Origin: an uncultured Lachnospiraceae bacterium
GTDB taxonomy: Bacteria; Bacillota; Clostridia; Lachnospirales; Lachnospiraceae
Length of the DNA: 64,000 bases
Direction of reading: 5' to 3'
Assembly (NCBI GenBank): GCA_946537305.1
Contig: CAMNFR010000002.1
Coordinates: 48,564 to 112,563, forward strand
Below the pieces are notes generated by a model. That model did not search any database. It saw only the letters and a program-made list of their open reading frames with translations, and was not told where the DNA came from. A program made the translations under genes and the position numbers. This document shows, one piece after another, positions 6,379-25,224 of this stretch; positions within the stretch are counted from its first letter, which is position 1; each line of letters opens with the position of its first letter.

Positions 6379-7344
6379 ATGAAGATCGTTGTATTGGACG
6401 GATATACGGAAAACCCCGGGGATCTTTCCTGGGAGAGACTGGAAGCACTGGGCGAGTGTGTGGTCTACGACCGCACCTCCTATGAGGAATCTCCGCTGAT
6501 CGCAGAGCGCATCGGGGATGCACAGATTGCTGTCATCAACAAAACACCCATCAGCCGAGCCACCATGGATGCCTGCCCCAATCTGAACGCGATCGCCGTG
6601 CTTGCGACCGGCTACAATGTGGTAGATGTGGAAGCTGCGAAAGAAAAGGGAATCGTAGTTATGAACGTGCCCACCTACGGCACCCAGATCGTAGGACAGT
6701 ATGCGGTCGGCCTGCTGCTGGAGATCTGCTCTCACTACGCCCATCATGACGCAGCCGTGAAGGAAGGCCGTTGGGAGCACAACGATGACTGGTGCTTCTG
6801 GGATTACCCCATGATCGAGCTCTACGGTAAGACCGCCGGTGTGATCGGGCTGGGCCGCATCGGTCAGGCTACCGCGAAGATCTTGAATGCATTGAACATG
6901 AAGGTGCTTGCGTATGATGCATATCAGAGCGAGGCAGGAAAGGCTGTGGCAGAGTATGTCCCTCTGGATGAGCTGTATGCCCGCTGCGATGTCATCTTCC
7001 TGCACTGCCCGCTGTTCCCCTCCACTGAGGGAATGATCAATAAGGAAAGCATCGCCAAAATGAAGGATGGCGTGATTCTGATCAACAACAGCCGCGGCCA
7101 GCTGGTCGTGGAGCAGGATCTGGCGGATGCTCTGAATTCCGGCAAGGTCTATGCAGCGGGTCTGGACGTTGTTTCCACAGAGCCCATCCGCGGGGACAAC
7201 CCTCTGCTGACGGCAAAGAACACCATCATTACACCCCACATTTCCTGGGCCGCACAGGCCGCCAGACAGCGAATCATGGATATCACGGCGGATAACCTGG
7301 AGGCTTACCTGGCAGGAAGCCCGGTAAACGTGGTAAACAAGTGA
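6379..7344 (+). CDS. D-isomer-specific 2-hydroxyacid dehydrogenase (glycerate/hydroxypyruvate reductase-like)
   Basis: 321 aa. It has the GVIGLGRIGQATAK Rossmann motif plus NNSRGQLV, DVVSTEP and ITPHISW. The ATG directly abuts the upstream stop. Confidence 0.9.
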   Translation: MKIVVLDGYTENPGDLSWERLEALGECVVYDRTSYEESPLIAERIGDAQIAVINKTPISRATMDACPNLNAIAVLATGYNVVDVEAAKEKGIVVMNVPTYGTQIVGQYAVGLLLEICSHYAHHDAAVKEGRWEHNDDWCFWDYPMIELYGKTAGVIGLGRIGQATAKILNALNMKVLAYDAYQSEAGKAVAEYVPLDELYARCDVIFLHCPLFPSTEGMINKESIAKMKDGVILINNSRGQLVVEQDLADALNSGKVYAAGLDVVSTEPIRGDNPLLTAKNTIITPHISWAAQAARQRIMDITADNLEAYLAGSPVNVVNK

Positions 7345-7371
7345 TAGAATCGAAAGGACTTGGGAAGGCCT

Positions 7372-7880
7372 GAAAAATCTGAAGAGATGCCGTCGATTCT
7401 CCGGGGCTAACCGATTGCCTTGGGAGCGGCTGTGATGCAGGTCGCGGGACAGTACGCCCCATGCCTAAAGGTAAGATTTCGAATTTACACCACATTCAGG
7501 ACATGTCTTTCAGGACTCGGCTCGACACATGCCGCGGTGCATGGTGTGGCGCAAGTGGTACATGTCGTGACACATGTCGCGGTGCAAAATCTAGGGTAGC
7601 GATAAATTTTTAATACCTCGGAATTTGCACAACATACCATTTATGACCTTTGAAAAGAGTGAAATGTGCAATATTCAAGGTCGTACAATAGATTTGCTAC
7701 CCTTTTTGATCCTTTCTGCTTGATTCAGAGACGAAAAAAGGGTGGCAAATCTTGTTTATTTCCCGGGTTATTGCACAAATCAATTTTGATATAGGAGTCC
7801 TGTGTCCGGGATGTGCAAAAATCCGGAGTCGCAAAGATCGTTTGCTACCCCTGGTTTTTGCACAGAAATTCTTTCGGCTC
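7372..7880. repeat. Left palindrome-rich repeat mosaic (inverted copy of 56400-56775)
   Basis: The reverse complement of 7620-7880 aligns by eye with 56400-56650. Shared strings include tgtgcaaaa, (a)gatttgctaccctttt..aaaagggt(a/g)gcaaatct, ccttgaatattgcaca and cataaatggtat(a/g)ttgtgcaaa. Weaker similarity continues to about 7372 / 56775 (ttagccccggagaatcgac vs ttaagccccaaagaatcgac). No credible ORF. Confidence 0.6.
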
Positions 7881-8449
7881 CGCACCTGTGCCAAACTGGT
7901 CTATTTGATTCGTAACCTGACACTAATGCAGTCATATGGCACAAAACAAGTGCCAGGCGCCTGAAAAATGACATTCTGAGCAGGTGGATGGGGAGACATA
8001 TTTAGTGGGTATAGGCAAAATAGCACAAACGCGGAGCCGGAAGTTTTTCTGTGACAGATTGTGCCATTGCGGAAAGGATCATGGCAATTCTATTTTATGC
8101 TGTTCGTTAATTAACTAAATCTTCGTTCCAGTACCCATAACCTTTAGCGATTATCCTTGTTTGTCATGTGATTTTGATCCGTTTTGACTTTTGATTGTTC
8201 GTGTTGCAAGCATTTCCTGATAACAGTTCCCCTGTTTTGTTCTCGTTGAGGGTCCTGACAAGGGTACTGTTTTTGACTTGCCGGTGATATACGAACATTT
8301 TCGACCTAAAGCCTCACAAAAGCATTAAAAACCGGTCTATTTCGGGGGTACTGAAATTTAGCAACATTGAAATTACGAACGTAGCCAAGAGATATCCATA
8401 ATTTCTGGTCAGCAGCGGTGATTCAATACGGGAATAACAGAGCTCCCAG

Positions 8450-8650
8450 CTGCCGGAATGATATCTCCAAAGAAAACGGTAGGCCGGCGCAGGGTTTCTT
8501 CACAGCGAACTTCGACGTGTTGGAGCGCTGATCGTCTATTAAAGCAAGTCCCCATGGCATTTATAAAGCCCGCGCGGAAACACGTTCGGATAAGTTCGCC
8601 GCGAAGAGGCCCGGAGTGGCCGTGTTTTCGTGGAGATATCATTCCGGCAG
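8450..8650. repeat. 201-bp element bounded by perfect 20-bp terminal inverted repeats (MITE-like or structured RNA)
   Basis: ctgccggaatgatatctcca (8450-8469) is the exact reverse complement of tggagatatcattccggcag (8631-8650). Imperfect pairing extends about 10 nt further inward. Confidence 0.5.
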
Positions 8651-8678
8651 CGGCAGTTGTCGATACATCCCACGTATC

Positions 8679-8830
8679 GTCCATGCCGCCATCTCACGTC
8701 CGCATCCGCGGGCGCTCGCTGTCGCGGCTTTCGCCGTATGCCAAGAAAACATTAAGCAGTCCCGGATGAGCAAGCTCCTCCGTGTCTGCTTAATGTTTCT
8801 TGGCGCATGGACTCAATGCTAACGCGCAAA
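8679..8830. repeat. Direct-repeat copy L (same orientation as 56881-57032), contains a ~19-bp stem-loop
   Basis: gtccatgccgccatctc...tcgctgtcgcggctttcgccgtatgccaagaaaacattaagcag...ctgcttaatgtttcttggcgcatggactcaatgct is near-identical to 56881-57032. It has the internal hairpin gccaagaaaacattaagcag / ctgcttaatgtttcttggc. Confidence 0.7.
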
Positions 8831-8918
8831 CCTATAGTTGTCATCTGCAATAAAGGCCCTCTTGACTTCTGCGCCATTCCATGGTTTAGTTATGGCTGTG
8901 CATGGGAGGTTATGATAC

Positions 8919-9935
8919 ATGCTGGCAGTATTTCAATATGCTTTTAACGCGGTAAGTCCGATTCTTATATTAGGTGCCATCGGCTATCTGGCCCGGCAGA
9001 TGGGCTGGTTCACAAAAGACGCCCTGAAGGCAATGAACCGGTTCAATTTTCGCTTCTGCCTGAGCTGTTTAATGTTTGTGAACGTATATGAAGCAGAAAA
9101 CTCTATGGGGCTTGTACCTTCACTGCTTCTGACCTTGTTTGCTGCGCTGATTCTGCTGACGGTCGTGGGGGTTGCGGCGGCGAACCTGGTCACGAAGGAT
9201 GGCAGCCGGAAGGCTATTCTGGTGCAGGCGGCGTTTCGCTCTAACTACGCCATCATTGGGCTTCCGGTGGTCGCTTCCCTGGCAGGGCAGGAAGCCCTGG
9301 GCTTGGCTAGCCTGTTCCAGATCCCTTGCGTCATGTACTACAATGGAATGTCAGTATTCCTGCTTTTGCACTATGCCGGGCAGCATAGTGATTCAGAAAA
9401 TCCTGTCCGCAAGGTAGTGACGGGCATTCTGACCAATCCGCTGATCGACGGCCTGCTGGTCGGGACCGCGGTTCTCCTGCTGCGTCCTCTGATTCCGACC
9501 GGTGCGGACGGACAGATGCTCTTCACCATTTCCGGGAGCCTTCCCTGGGCCTATCAGGTCGTCAAATACCTGGCCAATATGTCCACACCGCTGGCACTGA
9601 TCGTACTGGGCGGGCAGATGGATTTTAAGAGCATTGCTGGTTTTCGGCGTGAGCTGATCACCGGGGTCTTTCTGCGTCTGGTCGTCGCGCCGGCACTGGG
9701 TTTTCTGGTGCTTTTTGTGTCCTACGGATTGGGGCTGGTGGATCTTCCCCGGGCTGTTGTGGCCTTGGTGACCGCCGTCTTTTCATCGCCCCTGGCGGCG
9801 GCTTCGGTAGTAATGGCTGCGGAGATGAACGGAGATGATCAGCTCTGCGGGCAGATCGTGGCCTGGACCAGCGCACTGGGTATGTTCTCGCTGTTTGTTG
9901 TGATCTCGCTGCTAAGAGCGACCGGCTGGCTGTAA
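8919..9935 (+). CDS. AEC-family (auxin efflux carrier-type) membrane transporter
   Basis: 338 aa with about 10 hydrophobic segments. The N-terminus FNAVSPILILGAIGYLARQ and overall pattern are typical of the AEC/membrane transport protein family. Confidence 0.8.
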   Translation: MLAVFQYAFNAVSPILILGAIGYLARQMGWFTKDALKAMNRFNFRFCLSCLMFVNVYEAENSMGLVPSLLLTLFAALILLTVVGVAAANLVTKDGSRKAILVQAAFRSNYAIIGLPVVASLAGQEALGLASLFQIPCVMYYNGMSVFLLLHYAGQHSDSENPVRKVVTGILTNPLIDGLLVGTAVLLLRPLIPTGADGQMLFTISGSLPWAYQVVKYLANMSTPLALIVLGGQMDFKSIAGFRRELITGVFLRLVVAPALGFLVLFVSYGLGLVDLPRAVVALVTAVFSSPLAAASVVMAAEMNGDDQLCGQIVAWTSALGMFSLFVVISLLRATGWL

Positions 9936-10135: not shown

Positions 10136-12442
10136 ATGGGATATGGATTTCTTGTCTTTCTGTGCAGTGCATTGATCCTGGCCGCTCTGGGCGGCTTGTT
10201 TTACGTGCTGCGGAAAAAATTCCGGTGGAACACGAAAGTGTCTCTGCTGCTGTACATTTTTATCCTGATCTGGAGCGCCCGCTTTGCGGTTTGCTTTGCA
10301 GGAAACGTGGAAGGATCAGCTGGTCTCAGCGCCGGTGAAAAGCTGATGGACAGTCTGGTACACACCCTGCAGACATTCAGTATGGATGAAAGCTATACGG
10401 CGTTTACCCTGGAGGGAAAACGTCTGTTGGCAGATGTTTATGGGTACTCCTTCCTGGCAGAGGTCTACGGCGTGGTCATTTCCGCCCTGGACATCTTTGC
10501 GCCGATCATGGGAGGAGCTATATTATTGGAGATCCTGACCAGTGCATTCCCCAGACTGTATCTGGCCGTACGGCCCTTCCGCCGGAAATTTGTCTTTTCA
10601 GAGATGAATGAGGCGGCCGTTACACTGGCGGAGGACATCTGCCGCGGGGATCATTTTCAGACCATTCTCCGTCAGGGCGCGCTGGAGTTCCGGCCGCTGA
10701 TCGTCTTTACGGATGCCTATCCGGATCAGGAATCCGAGGCGAAATCTGAGTTGTTCGGCCGCGCAAGAGCGATGAAGGCCGTCAGCATCAAAACAGACCT
10801 CACGCATCTTCGGTTTGTGAGATCTAAATCGGTCTACTATTTCCTGATGGATGAGGACGAGGATAAGAGTATTACAGCACTCGCGGGACTGTTGGACGGC
10901 ACCGCGGAGGGTGAAATTATGTGGCCGGAGGGCACCGAAGAGGACGGCGGCGAGCCGCGCACCAAGGTGTTTGCCTTCTGCCGCAGCCGCATGAGCGCTA
11001 CGATGATCCGCAACCTGGTGGAAAGCAGTCCCCGGGGAGCAAAGATGATGGTACGTCCCATCCGTGACTATGCGAATACTGCCATCAGCCTGATGTATGA
11101 AGTGCCGCTGTTCACGGCGCTTGCGGGGCGGACGGAGGCGGAAGCGAATGCAGCGCAGACAGATGAAAAAGCGGAAGCTGCACAGACAAAGGAAAAAACG
11201 ACGGCAGAACGCCCGGGAAAAACGATCATAGTAGATGGATTTGCTACGGAAAAGGATGCCGAGGGGAGAATCGGCGGTCTGGTTCCTGTCCGGGAGCTTC
11301 ATGTGGCGATCCTTGGGAGCGGCAGCATCGCCGAGGAAGTAATGAAGGCCGTATACTGGTGCGGCCAGATGGGCGGCATTCAGCTGTATATCCACGTGCT
11401 GTCACAGGAGGCGCCTGCGCTGATGGAACGCCTGAAGCGGGTGTGTCCGGAAATGATAGCTGTGTGCGAAGCCGATTCCGACCTGCTGAAGATCTATCCG
11501 AAGAGCGATTCGTCCCTGAAGAATCCTCCGTATGCCATTCTTTCCGGTCTGGATACGTCCGTGGATGTGGAAGATCTTACCTCTTATCCGGCCGGTCTTC
11601 TGGAGAAGACCGATTACTTTGTGGTAGCGCTGGGATCGGATGAGAAAAACATTTATGTGGCCACGGAGCTGCGCCGGGAACTGACGCGCCGCGCGCTGCT
11701 TAGCGGAGCGGACCGGCATCCGGTCATTGCACCGGCCATCTTTGAGGATCGTCTGGCAGAGTCTATTACGATCAAGGTCCCCGGAGCTTATGAGCCCTAT
11801 CTGGTGCCGTTTGCCACGCTGGAAAAACGCTTCAGCTGTCAGAATGTGTTCATGGTAGATGTGACCGCGGAGGCGCTGGCCGGTGCGGATCTCTACGATG
11901 CCAAGCATCACGAAAAACAGAAAAAGGATGAATACTACGACTGGGCCAATACAGCCCGCGCCGTGCATGCGCCGTACAAGCTCTTTGCCATGGGTGCCGT
12001 CACGGGGGTAGATTTGACCGCGCCTGCGTCTAAGCGTTTCCTGGGGACAAAGACAGACATCCGCCCGGATGACGCCGCGTTTTCCTGGATGGAGCATCGC
12101 CGGTGGAATGCCTTCCAGCGTACCCAGGGTTTCCGCGCCCCCACAAAGGAGCAGCACGACCGTTATTATAAGGAAACATTATCCCACAAGCATGTGGAGC
12201 TGAAGCTGCATCCCTGCCTGGTGGAAAGCAGCCTGCGCGGCAAAGACATGCCGAAGGAGATTCCCTTTGATGAAAGCGTTTACGACGCACTGGATCTTGT
12301 GTCTGCCTATGACTATCACCTGATGTGTGAGACAAAGCGGAAGGAGGAGACAGCCGAAGGGCGGCAAGGCGGCGAGTACAAACAGTGGGATGATTATGAG
12401 AACGATGAGGCAGCAAGGGCCCTGATGGATAGGCTGGCATAG
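10136..12442 (+). CDS. Membrane protein with central Rossmann-like domain and C-terminal RyR-like module
   Basis: 768 aa. It has 3-4 N-terminal TM segments and VAILGSGSIAEEV (GxGxxA after a beta-strand). The C-terminal ARAVHAPYKLF...WMEHRRWNAFQRTQGF...KLHPCLVES resembles the RyR-domain pattern (..HE.W....GW....HP.LVP). Confidence 0.7.
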   Translation: MGYGFLVFLCSALILAALGGLFYVLRKKFRWNTKVSLLLYIFILIWSARFAVCFAGNVEGSAGLSAGEKLMDSLVHTLQTFSMDESYTAFTLEGKRLLADVYGYSFLAEVYGVVISALDIFAPIMGGAILLEILTSAFPRLYLAVRPFRRKFVFSEMNEAAVTLAEDICRGDHFQTILRQGALEFRPLIVFTDAYPDQESEAKSELFGRARAMKAVSIKTDLTHLRFVRSKSVYYFLMDEDEDKSITALAGLLDGTAEGEIMWPEGTEEDGGEPRTKVFAFCRSRMSATMIRNLVESSPRGAKMMVRPIRDYANTAISLMYEVPLFTALAGRTEAEANAAQTDEKAEAAQTKEKTTAERPGKTIIVDGFATEKDAEGRIGGLVPVRELHVAILGSGSIAEEVMKAVYWCGQMGGIQLYIHVLSQEAPALMERLKRVCPEMIAVCEADSDLLKIYPKSDSSLKNPPYAILSGLDTSVDVEDLTSYPAGLLEKTDYFVVALGSDEKNIYVATELRRELTRRALLSGADRHPVIAPAIFEDRLAESITIKVPGAYEPYLVPFATLEKRFSCQNVFMVDVTAEALAGADLYDAKHHEKQKKDEYYDWANTARAVHAPYKLFAMGAVTGVDLTAPASKRFLGTKTDIRPDDAAFSWMEHRRWNAFQRTQGFRAPTKEQHDRYYKETLSHKHVELKLHPCLVESSLRGKDMPKEIPFDESVYDALDLVSAYDYHLMCETKRKEETAEGRQGGEYKQWDDYENDEAARALMDRLA

Positions 12443-12460
12443 TGAAAAGAAAAGACAGAA

Positions 12461-12506
12461 AAAGGGATCTCTGGATGAAAAAGCCAGGGTATCCCTTTTT
12501 CTTTGC
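12461..12506 (+). terminator. Rho-independent terminator candidate
   Basis: aaagggatctctgg ... ccagggtatcccttt forms an imperfect hairpin followed by ttctttg. It separates 10136-12442 from the big cluster. Confidence 0.5.
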
Positions 12507-12569
12507 CTGAAGTGAATAATTTATCACAATGCTTCCGCACAAACGTAGTAAGGAAGAGTATCGTATTAC

Positions 12570-12622: not shown

Positions 12623-13048
12623 ATGAATAATACCAGAAATGATTTTGATATGTTCCGGATGACGGAGGAGGAAGAGGGCGGTCAGAACTTTACGCAGTCG
12701 GATCCGGGGAAAGCGCAAAAAGGCTTCCGCCTGGAGGAGGAGCCTCTTTTGGTCCGCGACCGCAAAAAGATCATACAGTGCGCTGTCATTCTTGCGGCGG
12801 TATTTATTGTAAGCTATGTGATCTGGCCGATGGATATTTCTAATTTTTATCTGACAAATGCGGCTGTGGAGAAGTTTGTACAGGGACTGTTCTCTATGAA
12901 CGGAACCCTTCTTGCGGAGGGCGGAAAGGAAATGCTGCTGTGTATGCTGCAAGACCTTGCTCAGATTGGCCGGGCTTTTCTTACGGTAATTGTGTCTCTT
13001 GTGATCATGAAACTGACGGTTCTGCGAAAGAAAAAAACGAGGAGATAG
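12623..13048 (+). CDS. Small 2-TM membrane protein, no recognised family
   Basis: 141-aa ORF with an SD. It has two hydrophobic segments (AVILAAVFIVSYVIWPM; FLTVIVSLVIMKLTVL) and ends 8 nt before the next ORF. Confidence 0.55.
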   Translation: MNNTRNDFDMFRMTEEEEGGQNFTQSDPGKAQKGFRLEEEPLLVRDRKKIIQCAVILAAVFIVSYVIWPMDISNFYLTNAAVEKFVQGLFSMNGTLLAEGGKEMLLCMLQDLAQIGRAFLTVIVSLVIMKLTVLRKKKTRR

Positions 13049-13055
13049 AAGTGCT

Positions 13056-16000
13056 ATGAGTCGAGTGATCCGCTTGTTTGTCAGCTCTACCTTTAAGGAT
13101 TTTGCGGATGAGCGCGATGCGCTGATGCAGCACACATTTTCCACACTTCAGGAGGAATGCCGGAGAGATGGAATATCCTTCCAGGTCCTGGACCTTCGGT
13201 GGGGGATTTCCGAGCAGTCTGCTTTGAATAACGACACGCTCCGGATCTGTCTGGAAGAAATCGAACGGTGTCAGCGAATTTCTCCCGATGTGAATTTCCT
13301 CCTTATGGTGGGGGAGCGTTCGGGCTGGCACCCTCTGCCGACAGAAATATCCCGCGGGGAATGGGAACTCTTGATGCAGGCCGGTGAACATGCCGCGGCA
13401 AAGGATGTCGGTTGGCCCCGCTTGAAAAGCCTGATGGAAGCCTGGTATGCAGTGGATGAAAACGACATGGAGTGCCCAAGATGCCTGCGCCCGAGGGAGG
13501 GGATCTACGCTGAGGATCCAGCGGCGTTTCACACAGCAGAGAAGGAATTGAGGGAAGGGCTGGTCTGGCTGGTGGAACAAGCAGGCCTCCCGTCGGAGGA
13601 GATGGGAAAATATCAGGATTCAGCGACCACACAGGAAATCGTGAGAGGGCTGCTGCGCAATCCCGACCGGCTGCGCGGGCAGACTTTTGCCATGTTTCAG
13701 GATGATCCGGACAGTGTGGAAGATGAAATCAGCCGCGCGGAATGTCGCAGACTCCGGGAACGGATTCGACAGAATCTCCCGGACAGCCAGATTCATACCT
13801 ACCGAGTGGGCGACAATGCATACCTGGCTGCGGTAGAGGCCTTTTTACGTCAAAAAATTCAGGAAGAGAAAGAACGGTACCAGGCGATTGGCGCCTTTGA
13901 AGAGACACTGCGCAGCGAGGAGCGGGAGCAGCATTATCTGGAGCGGGGATATAGCAGCAGAGGGGAGCTGGAAGAGGCGTTTGCACGTTTTCTGGAGAGC
14001 CATGCCGGAGAGACGTTGCTGCTGACCGGCCCTTCGGGGAGCGGGAAAAGCTGGCTGATCCGTTATTTTTTGCGGGAGGCAGGCGAAAACATAACGGCAG
14101 CTGTCTTTACGGATGTGCAGCCAGCCTGTCGCCGAATGCAAAATATATACGCCTATCTGCTGTACAGGCTGGGCATCTCCGTCGGAAAAGCACCCGCAGA
14201 CAATGCCGAACTGAGGAATTGGTTCGAAAAAGCACTGCAATCTCTGCCGGAAGATCGGCCGGTCCGTATTTTTGTGGACTGTGTGGAAGGGATTGAGGAT
14301 TGGCGGGAGCAGGCGGACAGTCTGCTGGGTATCACGGTGCCCCGGAATGTAACGCTTATCGTAAGCGCCATCAGCCAAAACGCACTGAAGAGGCAGGAGC
14401 GGGAGATGAAAATCCCCTGTTTCAGCATGCCGCCTCTTTCGCGAGCGGGGGCTGTCCGTCAGATCCTGGAATACCTGGAAAAAGGTGGACGGCGGCTGAC
14501 GGCGCATCAACAGGAGATTCTTTCGGAAAATATCCCGGAGACGCCGATCCCGCTGCAGGCTGCGGTGATTGCCGAAGGGCTGATGCGCCAACGCAGCTTT
14601 ACAGCTTTTGTGCCGCAGGATTCGCTGTATTCGTTAGAGGATACCTTGCGGTATTTCTGCCTTCGGACAGGACAAAAAGAATATACGGTGCTGCGGCGTC
14701 ATATTCTGGGATATTTTGCGCTGGTGCATGTCGGGTTACAGGAAGAAGAACTGCTCCGATTATTGACAGTTGATGAAGCAGTGCAAAAAGAGATCCGGAA
14801 TATTCACGGCGATGATAACAGAAGGCTGCAGAATGCGCTTGCGATTTCGTTTCCCCCGGCACTCTGGGCCAGGGCATATTATGAGATACGTCCTGTGCTG
14901 ACGGAGATCCGTCAGGATGGAATGATATTGCTTTCCCTTCGTCATAATCGTCTGAGAGAGGCAATCCTACGTCTCCTGGAAAAAACAGAAGTGCGGGCTC
15001 TGCAGGAAAATCTGGTGCGGTATTTTCAGGACGAAGAGAGAAATCCATGGGCTTGGATTTCAGGGAAGGGAGAGATCCATCCCAACCGCAGAAAATATGA
15101 GGAGCTGGAGCCTCTGCTCCGGACGTCGGACCGGGAGGAGGACAGGCGCCGCTTCCTGGAAGATGTTAGATATGCAGACTGCGCCCTTCGCTTTGGCGGC
15201 CTTCTTTCTTTGGTGAAGATTTATGAGCAGTGGGTCCGCAGGAAAAAAGAGAGCGGGACGCCGGCGGAAATTCTGTTCCTGCTGCAGGAAAAGCCGGAAC
15301 TTTTTTCGCTGTTCCCGGATTCCTTTCTGCCGGCAGTGGTATCGCGTGGGCTGGCATCTGACAGGCTGCTCAGAGAATATCGCCTTCCGGGTTATATCAA
15401 AGGACAGGAAAAGAGCCGAAAAGCCGGAAGATATCATTTTCATGATATGGAACAAGGGCGGATGGCCCTGCGTGCCGATGGTATTCTGGCAGTCCTCTCC
15501 CGGGGAATGATTCATATGGCTGATCTTAGACTGGGAATCACACTTCCGGTGTATTGCAGGGTGCCGATGGAGGATGGCTGGATCTACTGGAATCGAGAAG
15601 ACTTATGCGTGCGGGATGAAAGCCGGCGGGTGGTCCTGTGTTTCGACGGAGAGGAATTGTTCGTGCGTGCTGTAATGCCTGCGACCCCGTATGAAAAGAT
15701 AGAGGCCCCGGACCGGCTGCAGCCGACAGATCCCTATGCCTGGCCGGAGTATGAGGTCATGTTCTCCCCGTATTACCGGCATCTGTCCTTCCGTGGGCGA
15801 AATGGCGTTACGAGAGCTGCACTTCCTTATGAGGAGGATGAATCGCCCCGGGTGCGGTTCCGCGCACATACAGTCTGCATAGAGACCAAGGGACGATATT
15901 TGGATATTATTGACGCGCAGGCAGGCCGTCTGCGTGGGAAGAGAAGAAGTTATTTTGCCATCGATGAATATACGGTTACATCCGACGGAAGGTTTGTGCT

Positions 16001-16970
16001 TGTCCGCCTGCTGGACGGCAGTATGACGTTGGTGGATACCGAAGTGCTCCCCGCTGGGGAAGCGGTCGATCTTCGGGAAAATATCGGAGGTGCGTCCGGC
16101 TTGCGGAGAACACTGGCGGAAGTGGGGAAAATGTTCTTCGCAGGCGCCAGGTCGGCCATCAATACGGATATCGCCGTAAAAGACGGATATACCGCACTTC
16201 ACAGGGGCGATGCAGATAAGGGAACAGATCTTTTGCCGCAACGGATGGTGTTTTCTCTTCGGTACGGATATGCAGCCTGCTATTATCGCAGGGGAAGTTC
16301 CAGTATGCTTGGCATTTATTCTCTGAAGGATCATCAGCTGCTCCGTATGGAGGAAGATATTCCCGAAATGTTTGAGAGCGATCAGGTACGGCTGCCCATG
16401 TACACGGTCCGGAACGGAAGATGCGTTGTTCTGTGCCTGGGTGGAGCCTGGCATCTGTATGATATAGAAAGCGGCGCGCACGAAGTTTGTGCGGAACGTC
16501 CGAAGGAGGATGCAGATGAAAAACTATCGGCGATGATCCGGGAACAATATGCGTCCGGGATCATGGAATACCGCACACAGTCGGAGGGAAGCGTGAGCCG
16601 GCACACGGCGGATCTGTCCGGCGTGGAAGGAAGGAGCGCGCTGGGAAAAATATCAGATGACGCGCTGGAAGCGGTAATTAAATCCTTACGGGTAGTGCTG
16701 TTCCGCGGAGAACGAAAATTCCGGGATGCAGGGATGCTGTATGAGGAATTAAGACATCTGCCGGTATGTTTCGATCCGGAAAAGGGATATTTCTGGCTGA
16801 TCGATCCTGTCCATGATATGATCCATGTTTATGACGTCCACGGAAGGTGCCTGGCCCGGGATCAGATTGATATGGATGCCACATGGGCGGATATAGATGA
16901 ATACGGAAGACTGGTAGTGATGTCCGGCGACAGCGGGCAGTCTGTGATCAGAGAGCTGATTACAGTATAA
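13056..16970 (+). CDS. DUF4062 (TIR-like) - STAND/NACHT-like P-loop NTPase - beta-propeller-like repeat protein
   Basis: 1304 aa. The N-terminus IRLFVSSTFKDFADERDALMQHTF...LDLRWGI is the DUF4062 pattern. Walker A is LLLTGPSGSGKSWL (14028-14051) and Walker B-like is VRIFVDCVEG. The C-terminal ~550 aa holds repeated blade-like strings (VVLCFDGEELFV, FVLVRLLDGSMTLVD, CVVLCLGGAWHLYD, FWLIDPVHDMIHVYD, RLVVMSGDSGQSVI). Confidence 0.82.
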   Translation: MSRVIRLFVSSTFKDFADERDALMQHTFSTLQEECRRDGISFQVLDLRWGISEQSALNNDTLRICLEEIERCQRISPDVNFLLMVGERSGWHPLPTEISRGEWELLMQAGEHAAAKDVGWPRLKSLMEAWYAVDENDMECPRCLRPREGIYAEDPAAFHTAEKELREGLVWLVEQAGLPSEEMGKYQDSATTQEIVRGLLRNPDRLRGQTFAMFQDDPDSVEDEISRAECRRLRERIRQNLPDSQIHTYRVGDNAYLAAVEAFLRQKIQEEKERYQAIGAFEETLRSEEREQHYLERGYSSRGELEEAFARFLESHAGETLLLTGPSGSGKSWLIRYFLREAGENITAAVFTDVQPACRRMQNIYAYLLYRLGISVGKAPADNAELRNWFEKALQSLPEDRPVRIFVDCVEGIEDWREQADSLLGITVPRNVTLIVSAISQNALKRQEREMKIPCFSMPPLSRAGAVRQILEYLEKGGRRLTAHQQEILSENIPETPIPLQAAVIAEGLMRQRSFTAFVPQDSLYSLEDTLRYFCLRTGQKEYTVLRRHILGYFALVHVGLQEEELLRLLTVDEAVQKEIRNIHGDDNRRLQNALAISFPPALWARAYYEIRPVLTEIRQDGMILLSLRHNRLREAILRLLEKTEVRALQENLVRYFQDEERNPWAWISGKGEIHPNRRKYEELEPLLRTSDREEDRRRFLEDVRYADCALRFGGLLSLVKIYEQWVRRKKESGTPAEILFLLQEKPELFSLFPDSFLPAVVSRGLASDRLLREYRLPGYIKGQEKSRKAGRYHFHDMEQGRMALRADGILAVLSRGMIHMADLRLGITLPVYCRVPMEDGWIYWNREDLCVRDESRRVVLCFDGEELFVRAVMPATPYEKIEAPDRLQPTDPYAWPEYEVMFSPYYRHLSFRGRNGVTRAALPYEEDESPRVRFRAHTVCIETKGRYLDIIDAQAGRLRGKRRSYFAIDEYTVTSDGRFVLVRLLDGSMTLVDTEVLPAGEAVDLRENIGGASGLRRTLAEVGKMFFAGARSAINTDIAVKDGYTALHRGDADKGTDLLPQRMVFSLRYGYAACYYRRGSSSMLGIYSLKDHQLLRMEEDIPEMFESDQVRLPMYTVRNGRCVVLCLGGAWHLYDIESGAHEVCAERPKEDADEKLSAMIREQYASGIMEYRTQSEGSVSRHTADLSGVEGRSALGKISDDALEAVIKSLRVVLFRGERKFRDAGMLYEELRHLPVCFDPEKGYFWLIDPVHDMIHVYDVHGRCLARDQIDMDATWADIDEYGRLVVMSGDSGQSVIRELITV

Positions 16971-20283: not shown

Positions 20284-23200
20284 ATGGGTTTTGATGAAAT
20301 GGGAGGCGGCTTTGATGGCGGGATGGAAAGTGTCAGCGAAGCACCTTCCATTTCTGAGGTTCCGGAGATCAGTGAAAGCATAGAAGAACCGGCTGAGGTG
20401 GATTTCGGAGATCTGGAGGTCCCGGAAGAGATGCCGGCGGAAGTCGGGGAGATGGAAGAAATCGGGGAGTCTGATTTTGAGGATCTGGACTTCGGCGAAC
20501 TGGACGAAATGCCGGAAGAAGGATTGGAAGATATCCCGGAAGACAGTCTGGACTTCGAAATGGAAGATGATTTCGAAGACATTCCGGAGGAGGATATCGA
20601 GGACATTCCAGAAGATATCGAGGATATTCCTGAGGATATTGAGGACGTTCCAGAGGAGATCGAGGATATTCCGGAGGAAGAAATCGAAGAGGAGATCGAG
20701 GACATTCCAGAAGAAGAGATCGAAGATATCCCTGAGGAAGAGCTTGAAGAAGAAATCGAGGATATCCCTGAGGAAGAACTCGAAGATATCCCAGAGGAGG
20801 AACTCGAAGAGGAAATAGAAGATATTCCAGAGGAGGAACTCGAAGAAGAGATCGAGGACATTCCAGAAGAAGAGATAGAAGAGGAGCTCGAGGATATCCC
20901 TGAGGAAGAGCTCGAAGAAGAGATCGAGGACATTCCAGAGGAGGAACTCGAAGAAGAGATCGAGGACATTCCAGAAGAAGAGATAGAAGAGGAGATCGAG
21001 GATATTCCTGAGGAAGCGCTTGAAGAAGAGATCGAGGACATCCCTGAGGAAGAACTCGAAGATATCCCCGAGGAGGAACTCGAAGAAGAGATCGAGGACA
21101 TTCCGGAAGAAGAGATAGAAGAGGAAATCGAGGATATTCCTGAGGAAGCGCTTGAAGAAGAGATCGAGGACATCCCTGAGGAAGAACTCGAAGATATCCC
21201 CGAGGAGGAACTCGAAGAAGAGATCGAGGACATTCCAGAAGAAGAGATCGAAGAGGAGATCGAGGATATCCCAGAGGAGGAGATCGAAGAAGAGATCGAG
21301 GACATTCCAGAGGAGGAGATCGAAGAAGAGCTCGAGGATATTCCTGAGGAAGAACTCGAAGAGGGGATCGAGGATATCCCTGAGGAGGAACTTGAAGAGG
21401 AAATAGAAGATATCCCCGAGGAAGAACTCGAAGAGCAAGCTGAAGAAGAGCTCGAAGAACAAGCCGAGGAAGAACTCGAAGAGCAAGCTGAAGAAGAGCT
21501 CGAAGAACAAGCCGAGGAAGAACTCGAAGAACAAGCTGAAGAAGAACTCGAAGAGCAAGCTGAAGAAGAGCTCGAAGAGCAGGAAGAGCTCGAAGAGCAA
21601 GAAGAACTCGAAGAGCAGGAAGAGCTCGAGGAGCAGGAAGAGTTAGAAGAACAGGAAGAACTCGAGGAGCAGGAAGAACTCGAAGAGCAAGAGGAACTCG
21701 AGGAGCAGGAAGAGCTCGAAGAGCAAGAAGAGCTCGAGGAGCAGGAAGAGCTCGAAGAGCAGGAAAAACTCGAAGAGCAGGAAGAGTTAGAAGAGCAGGA
21801 AGAGCTCGAAGAGCAGGAAGAGTTAGAAGAACAGGAAGAGCTCGAAGAGCAGGAAAAACTCGAAGAGCAAGAAGAGTTAGAAGAGCAGGAAGAACAGGAA
21901 GAGCTCGAAGAGCAGGAAGAACTCGAGGAGCAGGAAGAACTCGAGGAGCAGGAAGAGTTAGAAGAACAGGAAGAGCTCGAAGAGCAGGAAAAACTCGAAG
22001 AGCAGGAAGAGTTAGAAGAGCAGGAAGAGCTCGAAGAGCAGGAAGAGTTAGAAGAACAGGAAGAGCTCGAAGAGCAGGAAAAACTCGAAGAGCAAGAAGA
22101 GTTAGAAGAGCAGGAAGAACAGGAAGAGCTCGAAGAGCAGGAAGAACTCGAGGAGCAGGAAGAGTTAGAAGAACAGGAAGAACTCGAGGAGCAGAAAGAG
22201 TTAGAGGAACAGGAAGAGCAGGAAGAACTTGAAGAACAGGAGCGTGAGGAAGAGATTCTGGAATTGAAAAAAGTGTCGGAGGAAACAGAAGAAGTCTCCG
22301 AGCAGGAAATGTTCCTCCCCGCTGAAATGCAGGAACACTTCCAGAAAGAAAACGTGACTCTGGATGAGCATCTGGCTATGTACAACGAAGTACAGCAGCA
22401 GATGTCTGCTTTGGATGCAGAAAAAACTGCGATGGCGGAAAGCCGCGCAGAGGCAGAGGCCCTTCTGTCTGATGAAAACCTGACTGATGAGCAGCGTGCC
22501 ATCCTGGAGGAGTCGCTGGAGACGATGGATGCCCGGACCGCTGAAATGGAGCAGCAGCAGGAAGATTGCGACAAGCAGATGCAGATGCTTCAGACAGAGC
22601 GCTATGAAATGGAGCAGATCAGCAGTGCGGAAATGCGGGAGAACGAGGGCACCAGAGAAGCTCTTCTCGAGCAGGCTGCGGAACAGCATGAAAAGTTTGA
22701 AGATGCTCTGGACGGGAAGGACAGCGAAGCGTTCGTAGAAGAATGTAAAGACACGGTGGAGCAGCTGCAGGAGCAGGAAGCGGTCGTTAAGGACGCCAAA
22801 GAACTGAAATTCCAGGAAATCTACGAGTATGTGACCTCTCACAATATGGACCGGTTCGATACAGCGAATGATCCATATTACCGGCATTTGATGGAAGAAT
22901 ACCGCGCCCTTTCTGAACAGGAGAGCGCCGTTCACGGCGAAGCCGCCCGTCTGGATGCTCAGGCCATGTCGGTAGCTCTGACGCAAGAACTGCCCTACCA
23001 GTCTGCGCCGACAGAGCTGCCGCCTCACGAATTCCATACTAGTGTGTATTCCGATGAAGAATTGATGCGTGAAAAGCCGGAGAAGACCGGAACAAACATA
23101 GAAGAACTGTCGGAAGCGGAGGATGAAGCGGCCGAAGAAGCAGAGACAGATGCGGTGGCGGAAATTCCTGAGAAGGAAGTGCAGGAGTCTCTCTCGGAAG

Positions 23201-25224
23201 TGCAGGAGAGCAAGGCACAGGAAGTACAAGAGGCCATCGAGAACGGAACGGATGATCCGGAAAAAACGGATTATTTTGTAGACGAAGTCCGTGCAAAAGA
23301 AGCGCTGGAAGGTTTTTCCCGGGAAACATGGGAAAAGATGACAGTGGAGGAGAAGCAGGAGCAGATCCAAAAACTGGCAGAGTACAACAAGGAAATTCTT
23401 GGAATAGATCCGGATATCCGGGTAGAGTATTATCACAGTCAAGAGCCGGGAGACTGTGGGCATTACTCCGAAAAAGACGGCGTGGTCTATATCAATGCGG
23501 ACAACCTGGAGGACGGTGCGGAGACCGCAGATACGATTGCACACGAACTCCGTCATGCTTATCAGTATGAAAGAGCCAAGAAGCTGGAAAATGACAGAGA
23601 TGTTGCCTTTGCGCAGAATCTGAGACCGGGCGGATATATATCACCGGAAACAGATCTGGATGCATATTATGACCAGCCGGTAGAGGCGGATGCATTTGCC
23701 TATGGAGAACGTTTTGGCGATTATGTAAAGTCGATGGATTCGTCTGCGGCGGCGGAAGTGACGGCCCGGCCTGTGGAAAAAACGGATGCCCCCGAAAAGA
23801 AGGAAGTCGAAAAGGAGCAGACGCCGGAGGGTCTTTCCAAAGTGGAAAAGAGTCCGGAACGGCTGGAGCAGGAAAAGCTACATAAACGGCTGGAAGGAGA
23901 AGAGCTTCGGGAAATCAAGGAAACCATCCGTCCGATCTATGAGAATGCCCGGGAAGTGGGTGAAGCAGATCAGGCACTGGAGTACTACAAGGAGCACTTT
24001 GACATCGAAAGCGGTCATATTGAGAAAGTGGCGGAGAAATCGCTGGAAGCGGCCGACTCTTTTGAGGAATTGTTCAGGGCGGAGGATTATGATGGTCTTT
24101 ATTCTCCGGACATTGATCGCAGAACGCTTCAGACAATGGCGTACTTTCATGATACAGGCATGGACGGCGGGATTGAGGCGGCCAATTATGCTGAAGAACG
24201 AGCTTCTTATATAGAAAAACACGCCGGTGAACTATCAGAAAAGACCGGAGCAGAGAAGACCGAGGAAGAGCGCGGTGCGGAATTTGATGAGAGCATCCGC
24301 AAAAATCATTCACTGCAGTCAGCGGTCCATGTCCTGGAACACCGGGAACAGCTGGAAGCCATGGGCGTCGATCCGGATACCGTAGCGGTCGGATGTTTTA
24401 TGCACAGCAAGAGCTGTTCCGGAATGAAGAATCTGGCTGGCGGCGGAAAAGAATGGGGCACCTCCCTGGAGAAAATAGAGGCGGCCGTTAAAGAACATAA
24501 TGAGAAACATCCGGAGGAACCGATTACCTTCGACCGCGGCTGCCTGTTTAACGAAGACGGTACAGCGGATGAAAAGAAACTGGCACAGATGAGAAGCTAC
24601 TGTGCCTGCCTGCGTGTAGGTGATGCTTACGGACATGATTATCAATCGGTGGAGACACAGGGAGGAAAACGCGTTGATATAGAAAAAACAACGCTTTCTG
24701 TGCCCCCGGAGGATACCGCGAAGAAGGTACAGGCAGAGGAACTTCGGCAGCGCCTGGAAGGTATTCCTGAAGATGACAAAGTACAGGCATATCGGAAAGC
24801 AGCGTACTATCAGGAAGTTCAGGGCATGAAGATTTCCGTGGACGGCGTGGAACTGACGAATGAGAATGACCCGAAGGGCATAGCCCGGATGTATGCTGCC
24901 GGAGAAAAGAATTTCCGTGAACTAAAGACGGAGACGGCATCCAAAGAAGGTACGGCTGAAATGACGCATTCCATCACACTGGTCGATGGCAATGACAGTG
25001 TATACTGTACCCAGGAATGTATCGATGAGCGAATCAAGGAGTTGAATACGATTTGCGTGGAGGCGCCTCAAAGCGGGAAAAAGCCGGAGGATCTGAAGAA
25101 AGCAAATATGAAGGTCGTTCTGCACATCGGGAAAAACTGCGATGAGCGGGTTTTGAAAAGCTATGAGAAGTACGCAGACCGTGTAGAAGCAACGTATAAT
25201 ATTAAAATGGAGATTCGGGAATGA
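20284..25224 (+). CDS. Giant hyper-acidic tandem-repeat protein with HExxH zincin-like motif and HD-domain-like region
   Basis: 1646 aa. Residues ~80-650 are almost pure E/D/I/L/P/Q repeats. AHELRHAYQYE (HExxH at 23542-23556) is followed by QPVEADAFAYGERF. The HD-like pattern is SGHIEKVAEKS...(about 45 aa)...MAYFHDTGMDG (HD at 24148-24153), followed by further His/Asp clusters. Confidence 0.85.
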   Translation: MGFDEMGGGFDGGMESVSEAPSISEVPEISESIEEPAEVDFGDLEVPEEMPAEVGEMEEIGESDFEDLDFGELDEMPEEGLEDIPEDSLDFEMEDDFEDIPEEDIEDIPEDIEDIPEDIEDVPEEIEDIPEEEIEEEIEDIPEEEIEDIPEEELEEEIEDIPEEELEDIPEEELEEEIEDIPEEELEEEIEDIPEEEIEEELEDIPEEELEEEIEDIPEEELEEEIEDIPEEEIEEEIEDIPEEALEEEIEDIPEEELEDIPEEELEEEIEDIPEEEIEEEIEDIPEEALEEEIEDIPEEELEDIPEEELEEEIEDIPEEEIEEEIEDIPEEEIEEEIEDIPEEEIEEELEDIPEEELEEGIEDIPEEELEEEIEDIPEEELEEQAEEELEEQAEEELEEQAEEELEEQAEEELEEQAEEELEEQAEEELEEQEELEEQEELEEQEELEEQEELEEQEELEEQEELEEQEELEEQEELEEQEELEEQEELEEQEKLEEQEELEEQEELEEQEELEEQEELEEQEKLEEQEELEEQEEQEELEEQEELEEQEELEEQEELEEQEELEEQEKLEEQEELEEQEELEEQEELEEQEELEEQEKLEEQEELEEQEEQEELEEQEELEEQEELEEQEELEEQKELEEQEEQEELEEQEREEEILELKKVSEETEEVSEQEMFLPAEMQEHFQKENVTLDEHLAMYNEVQQQMSALDAEKTAMAESRAEAEALLSDENLTDEQRAILEESLETMDARTAEMEQQQEDCDKQMQMLQTERYEMEQISSAEMRENEGTREALLEQAAEQHEKFEDALDGKDSEAFVEECKDTVEQLQEQEAVVKDAKELKFQEIYEYVTSHNMDRFDTANDPYYRHLMEEYRALSEQESAVHGEAARLDAQAMSVALTQELPYQSAPTELPPHEFHTSVYSDEELMREKPEKTGTNIEELSEAEDEAAEEAETDAVAEIPEKEVQESLSEVQESKAQEVQEAIENGTDDPEKTDYFVDEVRAKEALEGFSRETWEKMTVEEKQEQIQKLAEYNKEILGIDPDIRVEYYHSQEPGDCGHYSEKDGVVYINADNLEDGAETADTIAHELRHAYQYERAKKLENDRDVAFAQNLRPGGYISPETDLDAYYDQPVEADAFAYGERFGDYVKSMDSSAAAEVTARPVEKTDAPEKKEVEKEQTPEGLSKVEKSPERLEQEKLHKRLEGEELREIKETIRPIYENAREVGEADQALEYYKEHFDIESGHIEKVAEKSLEAADSFEELFRAEDYDGLYSPDIDRRTLQTMAYFHDTGMDGGIEAANYAEERASYIEKHAGELSEKTGAEKTEEERGAEFDESIRKNHSLQSAVHVLEHREQLEAMGVDPDTVAVGCFMHSKSCSGMKNLAGGGKEWGTSLEKIEAAVKEHNEKHPEEPITFDRGCLFNEDGTADEKKLAQMRSYCACLRVGDAYGHDYQSVETQGGKRVDIEKTTLSVPPEDTAKKVQAEELRQRLEGIPEDDKVQAYRKAAYYQEVQGMKISVDGVELTNENDPKGIARMYAAGEKNFRELKTETASKEGTAEMTHSITLVDGNDSVYCTQECIDERIKELNTICVEAPQSGKKPEDLKKANMKVVLHIGKNCDERVLKSYEKYADRVEATYNIKMEIRE
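20575..22240 (+). repeat. In-frame three-tier coding tandem repeat array (about 24-36-bp EDIPEE-type units, 24-bp EELEEQAE units, 18-bp EELEEQ units)
   Basis: Read directly from the sequence. IEDIPEEE(L/I)EEE-type units span ~20575-21420. EELEEQAE x6 spans ~21421-21570. EELEEQ (occasionally EKLEEQ / EEQ) spans ~21571-22240, with higher-order periodicity marked by the EKLEEQ variants. Confidence 0.9.

Follow-up and report, generated by a model that had tools for sequence, protein, structure and literature searches.

An NLR-like DUF4062-NACHT-propeller gene with a membrane-protein partner beside a tubulin/DO-GTPase array in a Lachnospiraceae bacterium: a candidate two-gene conflict module

Does a large STAND gene at the head of a tubulin-like gene cluster serve that cluster, or does it belong to a system of its own? 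The question is raised by a 64,000-nucleotide (nt) stretch of DNA from an uncultured Lachnospiraceae bacterium (assembly GCA_946537305.1, contig CAMNFR010000002.1), referred to here as the window. An open reading frame (ORF) of 1304 amino acids (aa) with an ATG start is present on its + strand at 13056..16970 and is followed by an array of tubulin, DO-GTPase and vWA genes. The initial annotation described the product as a protein with a DUF4062, a NACHT-like and a beta-propeller region, and suggested that it might be the sensor or trigger of the whole locus. We find that the domain reading is sound and that a role in defence is a reasonable one on domain grounds, while the proposed function for the tubulin locus is not borne out. 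We consider it likely, with some room for doubt, that this STAND receptor and a small membrane protein encoded immediately upstream form a self-contained, two-gene conflict module beside a separate GAP1-N2 system.

To see how far the gene goes with the tubulin system, we compared 16 independent loci of its family, gathered with full-length alignment and counting two near-identical strains (L087 and L088) as one locus; tubulin and vWA homologues were sought by tblastn with every protein of the island. Tubulin_2 or vWA genes occurred within 10 kb in two of the 16, the window itself and L009, where a vWA-Tubulin_2 pair is found ~4.5 kb downstream of the family gene, behind two unrelated genes. 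No tubulin, vWA or DO-GTPase homologue was seen within 10 kb at the remaining 14. The gene of the closest homologue (L001, 50% identity) has an MFS-like fragment on one side and a radical-SAM-like gene after it, with no tubulin, and that of L002 is followed by a peptide deformylase and a GlgB-like gene. There were likewise no tubulin or vWA genes near the copy in L089, a close relative of L009. Conversely, a DUF4062-STAND gene was found in none of four related tubulin systems (L003, L004, L085 and L086), within the sequence recovered. The most telling of these is L004, whose DO-GTPases are 56-70% identical to those of the window and whose first tubulin gene is preceded by unrelated genes. Two linked loci out of 16 is more than chance would give, in keeping with the tendency of conflict genes to cluster. 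Taken with the four tubulin systems that lack the gene, these counts mean that it is best taken as an independent neighbour of the tubulin cluster, with which its family shows no conserved linkage; by the initial annotation's own test, absence of the gene from most orthologous loci would make it such a neighbour.

The protein has a clear modular layout (Table 1). A search of 5.8 billion proteins returned ~240 homologues, nearly all of which span just aa 1 to ~720-840. In those matching aa 1-~740, DUF4062 and NACHT or AAA_16 precede WD40 or TPR repeats, and animal NWD1 is among them (goose NWD1, E 2.9e-29, with homology over aa 1-~730). The motifs quoted in the initial annotation are where it had put them: the N-terminal string IRLFVSSTFKDFADERDALMQHTF corresponds to aa 5-28 (nt 13068-13139), VLDLRWGI to aa 44-51, the P-loop GPSGSGKS to aa 325-332, at exactly nt 14028-14051, and the Walker B-like VRIFVDCVEG, downstream of the P-loop, to aa 403-412 (nt 14262-14291). 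The architecture that it proposed, of the DUF4062-NACHT-propeller type, was recovered in all its parts: DUF4062, an NWD1-homologous NACHT-like ATPase and a divergent beta-propeller. By its sequence and modelled fold, the protein is an NLR-like (STAND) receptor in which a NADase-type NIR domain (the new name of DUF4062), a NACHT-type ATPase and a divergent propeller are combined.

Table 1. Positions of the STAND gene's domains, its partner gene and associated features. Coordinates are those of the window unless a locus is named.
Feature	Position	Strand	Basis or remark
Terminator-like hairpin and U-tract	12457..12502	+	follows the upstream 768-aa gene; 5' boundary of the partner-STAND unit
Small membrane-protein partner gene, 141 aa	12623..13048	+	position and transmembrane conservation across family loci
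NIR/DUF4062 TIR-like NADase domain (predicted), aa 1-260	13056..13835	+	Pfam, match to TEP1 11gz_A, conserved E194
NACHT-like STAND P-loop NTPase core, aa ~300-470	13953..14465	+	Pfam P-loop matches, Walker motifs
STAND helical and winged-helix region and helical linker, aa ~471-790	14466..15425	+	NWD1-like alignment, HTH_NWD1, model
Divergent beta-propeller, putative sensor, aa ~791-1304	15426..16967	+	AlphaFold2 model, Foldseek, profile against PDB
SLATT_1/DUF4231 genes	L009 5792-6307; L011 153-656; L089 8864-9376		three-gene module with partner and STAND gene

At the N-terminus, aa 6-105 match Pfam DUF4062 (PF13271; E 2.8e-9; 37.5 bits, cut-off 24.7), as do 17 of 17 family members. Since DUF4062 and the P-loop family AAA_22 both score above their Pfam cut-offs, the domain match is not a chance one. 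Preprints of 2026 show by experiment that DUF4062, renamed NIR, is a TIR-like NADase effector of anti-phage systems that needs one catalytic Glu and is also active in human TEP1, in agreement with the TIR-like identity first suggested for this region. The domain consists here of a core (aa 5-105) and an NWD1-type insert of ~98 aa (roughly aa 92-188) that separates the GxRxGW motif from SxTxxE; its catalytic motif, S189-A-T-T-Q-E194-I-V-R-G198, is encoded at nt 13620-13649 (E194 codon, 13635-13637).

The assignment of E194 draws on two alignments. That of aa 3-74 to the solved TIR-like domain of TEP1 (11gz_A, E 4.9e-13) stops short of the catalytic site. When 112 homologues are aligned, a motif S-[AV]-T-x-x-E-I-x-x-G coincides with S189-G198; E194 is kept in 111 of the 112, and neither this residue nor the motif around it varies in the protein's own family. 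A short-insert homologue (P0117) aligns to 11gz_A via 'RSVTEMEVMQ', the TEP1 motif being 'SVTEME'. The TEP1 crystal construct comprises residues 895-1113, in a chain of 220 residues, with E1008 as the catalytic Glu (DUF4062 preprints, 2026). We infer from this numbering that chain residue 1 is TEP1 894, so that chain E115 would be E1008; E115 occupies the second of the motif's Glu positions and would thus be equivalent to E194. The catalytic residues of characterised NIR proteins (TEP1 E1008, PsAvs2 E108 and KpSwz E97) also lie in an S-x-T-x-x-E motif. Two other candidates, E97 and E102 in 'PTEISRGEWE' at the end of the Pfam model, were rejected, being conserved in just 21 and 56 of the 112 homologues, respectively. 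The NIR domain thus retains its catalytic Glu, and NADase activity is predicted for this NWD1-type subtype.

The ATPase is recognizable from its P-loop. AAA_22, above its Pfam cut-off, and AAA_16 were matched at aa ~305-407, with weak matches only to NACHT, NPHP3_N and nSTAND1; the Pfam NACHT family (PF05729) fell below its gathering score in this protein (12.1 bits, cut-off 26.7; E 0.18). At the level of the family, NACHT was matched by 6/17 members (E<=0.01, best 9.8e-6), NPHP3_N by 7/17 and HTH_NWD1 by 5/17. Walker A has the family form GxSGxGK[ST], in which G325, G328, G330 and K331 are invariant. The Walker B motif reads D408-C-V-E-G in the window and hhhhD-[SCTA]-h-[DEN]-x in the family; set against the NACHT signature D[GAS]hDE, it has a small residue and a single acidic one and lacks the second. 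Membership of the NACHT clade is accordingly based on transitive homology to NWD1-like NACHT proteins, which identifies the ATPase as a predicted NWD1-type NACHT-like STAND module. Profile models of Avs proteins had no significant match to the protein (PADLOC Avs1b, E 0.0045, 12.3 bits, in the P-loop region alone). Further on, aa 700-775 are helical in an AlphaFold2 model built from 3 sequences (pLDDT, the predicted local distance difference test score, 52).

No Pfam propeller family matches the C-terminus; ANAPC4_WD40 gave weak, marginal matches in 6/14 family members. A family profile compared with PDB sequences yielded 20 weak matches (best E 0.0043), and 20 out of 20 were to WD40-type proteins. 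The three-sequence model was discarded for its low pLDDT, and aa 785-1304 were modelled with AlphaFold2 on a 14-sequence family alignment. This second model reached a pLDDT of 74.2, with 80-93 in most of its beta-strand blocks, and shows 33 strands in ~8 groups of four with two helical inserts (~aa 1015-1035 and 1155-1232). Foldseek returned 1303 PDB matches at E<=0.001 (best E 6e-11), with probability 1.0 to many propellers, and all 50 of the 50 matches listed were WD40-type or other beta-propellers (Utp21, COPB2, Swd1, ODA16, BamB, YVTN). The model thus suggests a very divergent beta-propeller of about eight four-stranded blades. The "at least six" blade-like repeats of the initial annotation hold in substance; their extent, given as ~550 aa, comes to ~514.

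Relatives of the propeller were collected by an exhaustive HMMER search of aa 740-1304 against 1.84 billion cluster representatives (E<=1e-3), which took the place of a word-indexed search with the C-terminal half that had missed even the identical protein. Twenty proteins share the region, most of them ~1260-1320 aa long and of the same layout, aligning end to end with the STAND protein at 25-32% identity; they were recovered from Lachnospiraceae and other Clostridia alone. Within the family, conservation is lowest in the propeller (mean pairwise identity of 24%, compared to 56% in the NIR core). A slowly evolving NIR core joined to a fast-evolving propeller would be the pattern expected of a sensor in an arms race, as in immune receptors. 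The STAND gene is apparently split into 2-3 ORFs in L019 (9071-13039) and L015 (774-5647), which could reflect frameshifts (pseudogenisation) or assembly errors, and the copy in L013 is much longer (1667 aa).

The only conserved neighbour of the STAND gene across the family loci is the small membrane-protein gene upstream. All 16 have a small ORF on the same strand, with 2-6 transmembrane (TM) helices predicted by a simple Kyte-Doolittle window, just upstream of the STAND start. In 14 measured loci the two genes are 0-54 nt apart; for L001 the distance comes to 70-108 nt, according to how the ORFs are called. In the window, the stop codon of the partner is 7 nt before the STAND start, and the ribosome-binding site of the STAND gene is inside the partner's 3' end. 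Two TM helices are predicted in the protein, at aa 48-66 and aa 111-129, and its C-terminal tail (RKKKTRR) is basic; the L001 counterpart is 47% identical. Partners, whose range of lengths includes 80-141 aa, usually have a TM hairpin preceded by basic residues and an 'LP' motif, as well as a basic tail. Across subgroups, profile searches detect no more than marginal similarity (E 4.5e-4 to 0.1), with other partners still ranking first, and conservation of the partner is taken here as one of position and architecture, short of proven homology. For 15 TM partners, no Pfam family (SLATT included) was found beyond scattered matches to TM composition.

The arrangement extends beyond the family. 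Multi-TM ORFs abut the STAND start in its nearest non-family relatives (L016, L017, L021, L022, L040 and L048), which come from gut Firmicutes and Coriobacteriales, and a comparable ORF with 2-3 TM helices was seen in about five of the rest of the 64 more distant loci checked. In one subclade (L009, L011 and L089), a gene for a SLATT_1/DUF4231 2TM domain lies directly upstream of the TM partner. SLATT_1 is a 2TM domain that is a predicted effector of conflict systems. The 2026 descriptions of DUF4062/NIR proteins mention no membrane partner, which sets this clade apart from the characterised systems.

Within the window, the 5' boundary of the partner-STAND unit is marked by a terminator-like hairpin. 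The RNA of 12455-12510 folds with -25 kcal/mol (z = -4.26), and 0 of 200 shuffled sequences fold as well. At the other end, the first tubulin gene has its likely start at an ATG behind a strong Shine-Dalgarno sequence, GGGGGAG. Scans for consensus promoters and terminators gave results near shuffle expectation and were uninformative. The left flank of the locus consists of ordinary metabolic genes.

We propose, on the model of the Avs, bNACHT and APAF-1-type receptors and of the experimentally characterised NIR systems, that the propeller and helical domains of the receptor would hold the ATPase closed at rest. A phage-derived or infection-induced ligand would bind the propeller and permit nucleotide-dependent oligomerisation of the NACHT module, whereupon the clustered NIR domains would hydrolyse NAD+ and the infected cell would arrest. 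The least certain step concerns the membrane partner (with SLATT in one subclade), which would probably either tether the receptor at the membrane or be a second, membrane-disrupting effector. The case for defence is made by domain homology, patchy distribution, a fast-evolving sensor, the SLATT link and the apparently decaying copies of L015 and L019, and not by island context. Several observations weigh against a defensive, independent module of this kind. The flanks of family loci are mostly housekeeping-like, with no recognisable defence islands (hits were summarised and not assigned to ORFs), and PADLOC gave nothing but weak P-loop matches on the STAND protein and no match for the window's TM partner. 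The NIR domain has the NWD1-type insert, and purified full-length NWD1, NWD2 and NPHP3 are inactive in vitro (DUF4062 preprints, 2026). Global confidence in the propeller model is low, with a predicted template modelling score (pTM) of 0.47 and Foldseek TM-scores of just 0.14-0.27. Lastly, the gap between STAND and tubulin genes, 28 nt to the probable tubulin ATG at 16999, holds no terminator structure; given the hairpin at the 5' end, the unit 12623-16970 starts a transcript that probably enters the tubulin cluster, and co-expression of the STAND gene with the tubulin system is likely in this genome.

Thoeris-type TIR domains produce a nucleotide signal, and one variant of the two-gene module would have the NIR domain make such a signal to open the upstream membrane protein (and SLATT), the cell being killed by membrane disruption. 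The strict conservation of a TM partner that abuts the STAND gene and extends to a sister gut clade would suit this variant, as would SLATT_1 in a subclade and the novelty of a membrane partner among the DUF4062 proteins described in 2026. However, characterised NIR domains yield solely ADP-ribose and nicotinamide, with no additional ADP-ribose derivatives from TEP1 (DUF4062 preprints, 2026), and in the partner, a protein as short as 80-141 aa, no ligand-binding domain can be recognised, making the variant quite unlikely in our view. More broadly, the gut-Firmicutes clade may be a new multi-component type of NLR in which the receptor acts through or at a dedicated, fast-evolving membrane protein (with SLATT in some). 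We put this forward tentatively, as a rather doubtful proposal; if true, it would couple activation to membrane disruption, or place sensing at the membrane, instead of or besides cytosolic NAD+ depletion.

Two further explanations depart from an independent defence module altogether. The protein could be a non-immune STAND ATPase with a signalling or housekeeping role, for instance a membrane-associated regulator, in which NIR serves as an adaptor or metabolic enzyme and not as a suicide effector. The housekeeping-like surroundings of family loci, the lack of in vitro NADase activity in full-length NWD1/NWD2 and the conserved membrane partner without a recognisable toxin domain are all compatible with such a role. 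Yet the family is patchy, with ~20 representatives among 1.84 billion, recovered here from Lachnospiraceae and other Clostridia alone; its effector core is conserved and its catalytic motif invariant, against a rapidly changing C-terminal domain; and there is a SLATT gene in one subclade and there are apparently frameshifted copies in L019 and L015. These traits are typical of conflict genes, and NIR genes are enriched near defence genes in published work (DUF4062/NIR preprint, 2026), which leaves a non-immune role unlikely. The other explanation is that of the initial annotation, a sensor or trigger of the tubulin/DO-GTPase/vWA locus that detects infection and activates a tubulin-based machinery. 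Likely co-transcription across the 28-nt gap speaks for it, together with the second linked member in L009, which brings linkage above random expectation, and with the frequent presence of STAND NTPases as accessories in related conflict systems (Kaur et al. 2020, PMC7159879). Set against these are the 14 tubulin-free loci, among them L001 and L089, the four tubulin systems, L004 included, that have no such gene in the sequence recovered, an effector domain of the protein's own with its catalytic motif intact, and the absence of DUF4062 from the description of the GAP1-N2 system in the same paper. We judge this explanation distinctly improbable and retain the self-contained module of receptor and membrane partner as the best account of the locus.

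The array downstream (16981-51282, +, ~34 kb) holds two Tubulin_2, two vWA and two DO-GTPase genes and GAP1-M, and continues with HerA/DUF87, zinc-ribbon and YARHG, and transglutaminase genes. After the STAND gene, the order is Tubulin_2, two DO-GTPases, GAP1-M, vWA, the second Tubulin_2, the second vWA, HerA-like, YARHG and transglutaminase. In predicted gene content, it matches the GTPase-centric conflict system GAP1-N2 in the version catalogued from Firmicutes (Kaur et al. 2020, PMC7159879). PADLOC had no match for the first eight genes of the cluster. A shorter core without DO-GTPases is present in L085 and L086 (vWA, Tubulin_2, vWA, one gene without assignment and HerA, with a transglutaminase gene further downstream), and in L086 it adjoins toxin/immunity-type genes (LHH, SUKH and TNT). 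One member of the window's array, a 1646-aa protein (20284-25224, +), has no Pfam match and carries long acidic tandem repeats (~20500-22235) with periods of 18-132 nt and units such as GAAGAGCTCGAAGAGCAG. This repeat region coincides with a strong GC and AT skew at 20-24 kb, and the length of the protein varies between near-identical strains (1511 aa in L087 vs. 1646 in the window). ORF calls overlap by 56 nt at 29251-31002/30947-33262 and by 191 nt at 48046-49695/49505-50809; the true downstream starts are probably later than those of the longest ORFs.

The gene upstream of the partner-STAND unit (10136-12442, +) encodes a 768-aa protein in which the N-terminal part has hydrophobic segments, aa ~387-392 form a Rossmann-like GxGxxA stretch and the C-terminal region contains an 'EHRRW' motif; no Pfam, PADLOC or significant PDB match was found for it. 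A full-length homologue (E 4e-24) is located ~2 kb from a different DUF4062-STAND gene, on the opposite strand, in Faecalibacterium sp. An122 (L049), and the C-terminal region had marginal matches near DUF4062-STAND genes in L019, L044 and L026; the association may be a recurrent one. Elsewhere in the window, the ~1.6 kb of 7344-8919 contain no ORF of >=150 aa on either strand, and Rfam detected no RNA family anywhere in the window.

These results add a branch from gut-commensal Lachnospiraceae to the recently recognised NIR/DUF4062 NADase immune effectors, and indicate that bacteria, too, have proteins of NWD1-type NIR-NACHT-propeller architecture, in this case accompanied by a membrane partner that looks obligate. 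The NIR subtype is shared by human NWD1 and NWD2, which are inactive in vitro, and a tractable bacterial homologue could reveal how it is activated. The results also remove a misleading link: the tubulin/DO-GTPase system is to be analysed without assuming that the STAND gene is its sensor. The gene is the physical neighbour of a GAP1-N2 system (PMC7159879), yet it is no described component of it, and at other loci it is not found together with that system.

Among known systems, PsAvs2 (Le Mouellic et al. 2026, bioRxiv 10.64898/2026.09.04.749371) has the same N-terminal NIR domain with a catalytic Glu, central STAND module and C-terminal repeat sensor, and the same proposed logic, from ligand through oligomerisation to NAD+ depletion. 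It differs in its Avs2-type STAND module and in a TPR sensor that recognises terminase, whereas the protein described here has an NWD1-type NACHT-like module, a NIR insert of ~98 aa, a propeller and a conserved membrane partner. SLATT 2TM effectors of nucleotide-centric conflict systems have their counterpart in the SLATT_1/DUF4231 genes of L009, L011 and L089, and none is found in the window. The bNACHT and APAF-1-like bacterial STAND proteins (Kibby et al. 10.1101/2022.07.19.500537; PMC13581612) likewise place a STAND NTPase between an N-terminal effector and a sensor of repeats or a propeller at the C-terminus, and those characterised need the Walker A lysine; these surveys do not use the name DUF4062, and our protein fits the D[GAS]hDE signature in part. 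Animal NWD1/NWD2 and TEP1 have the same DUF4062-NACHT-WD40 domain order; the NIR insert and, in family members, the HTH_NWD1 winged helix are shared with the NWD1 type. TEP1 is an active NADase, while NWD1/NWD2 are inactive in vitro. Unlike these animal proteins, the Lachnospiraceae protein is bacterial and operonic with a membrane protein, and it has a propeller that is not detectably WD40 by Pfam, two helical inserts and no TROVE domain. It is, in sum, a membrane-partnered, Lachnospiraceae-type form of the known NIR-NACHT-repeat NLR-like receptors.

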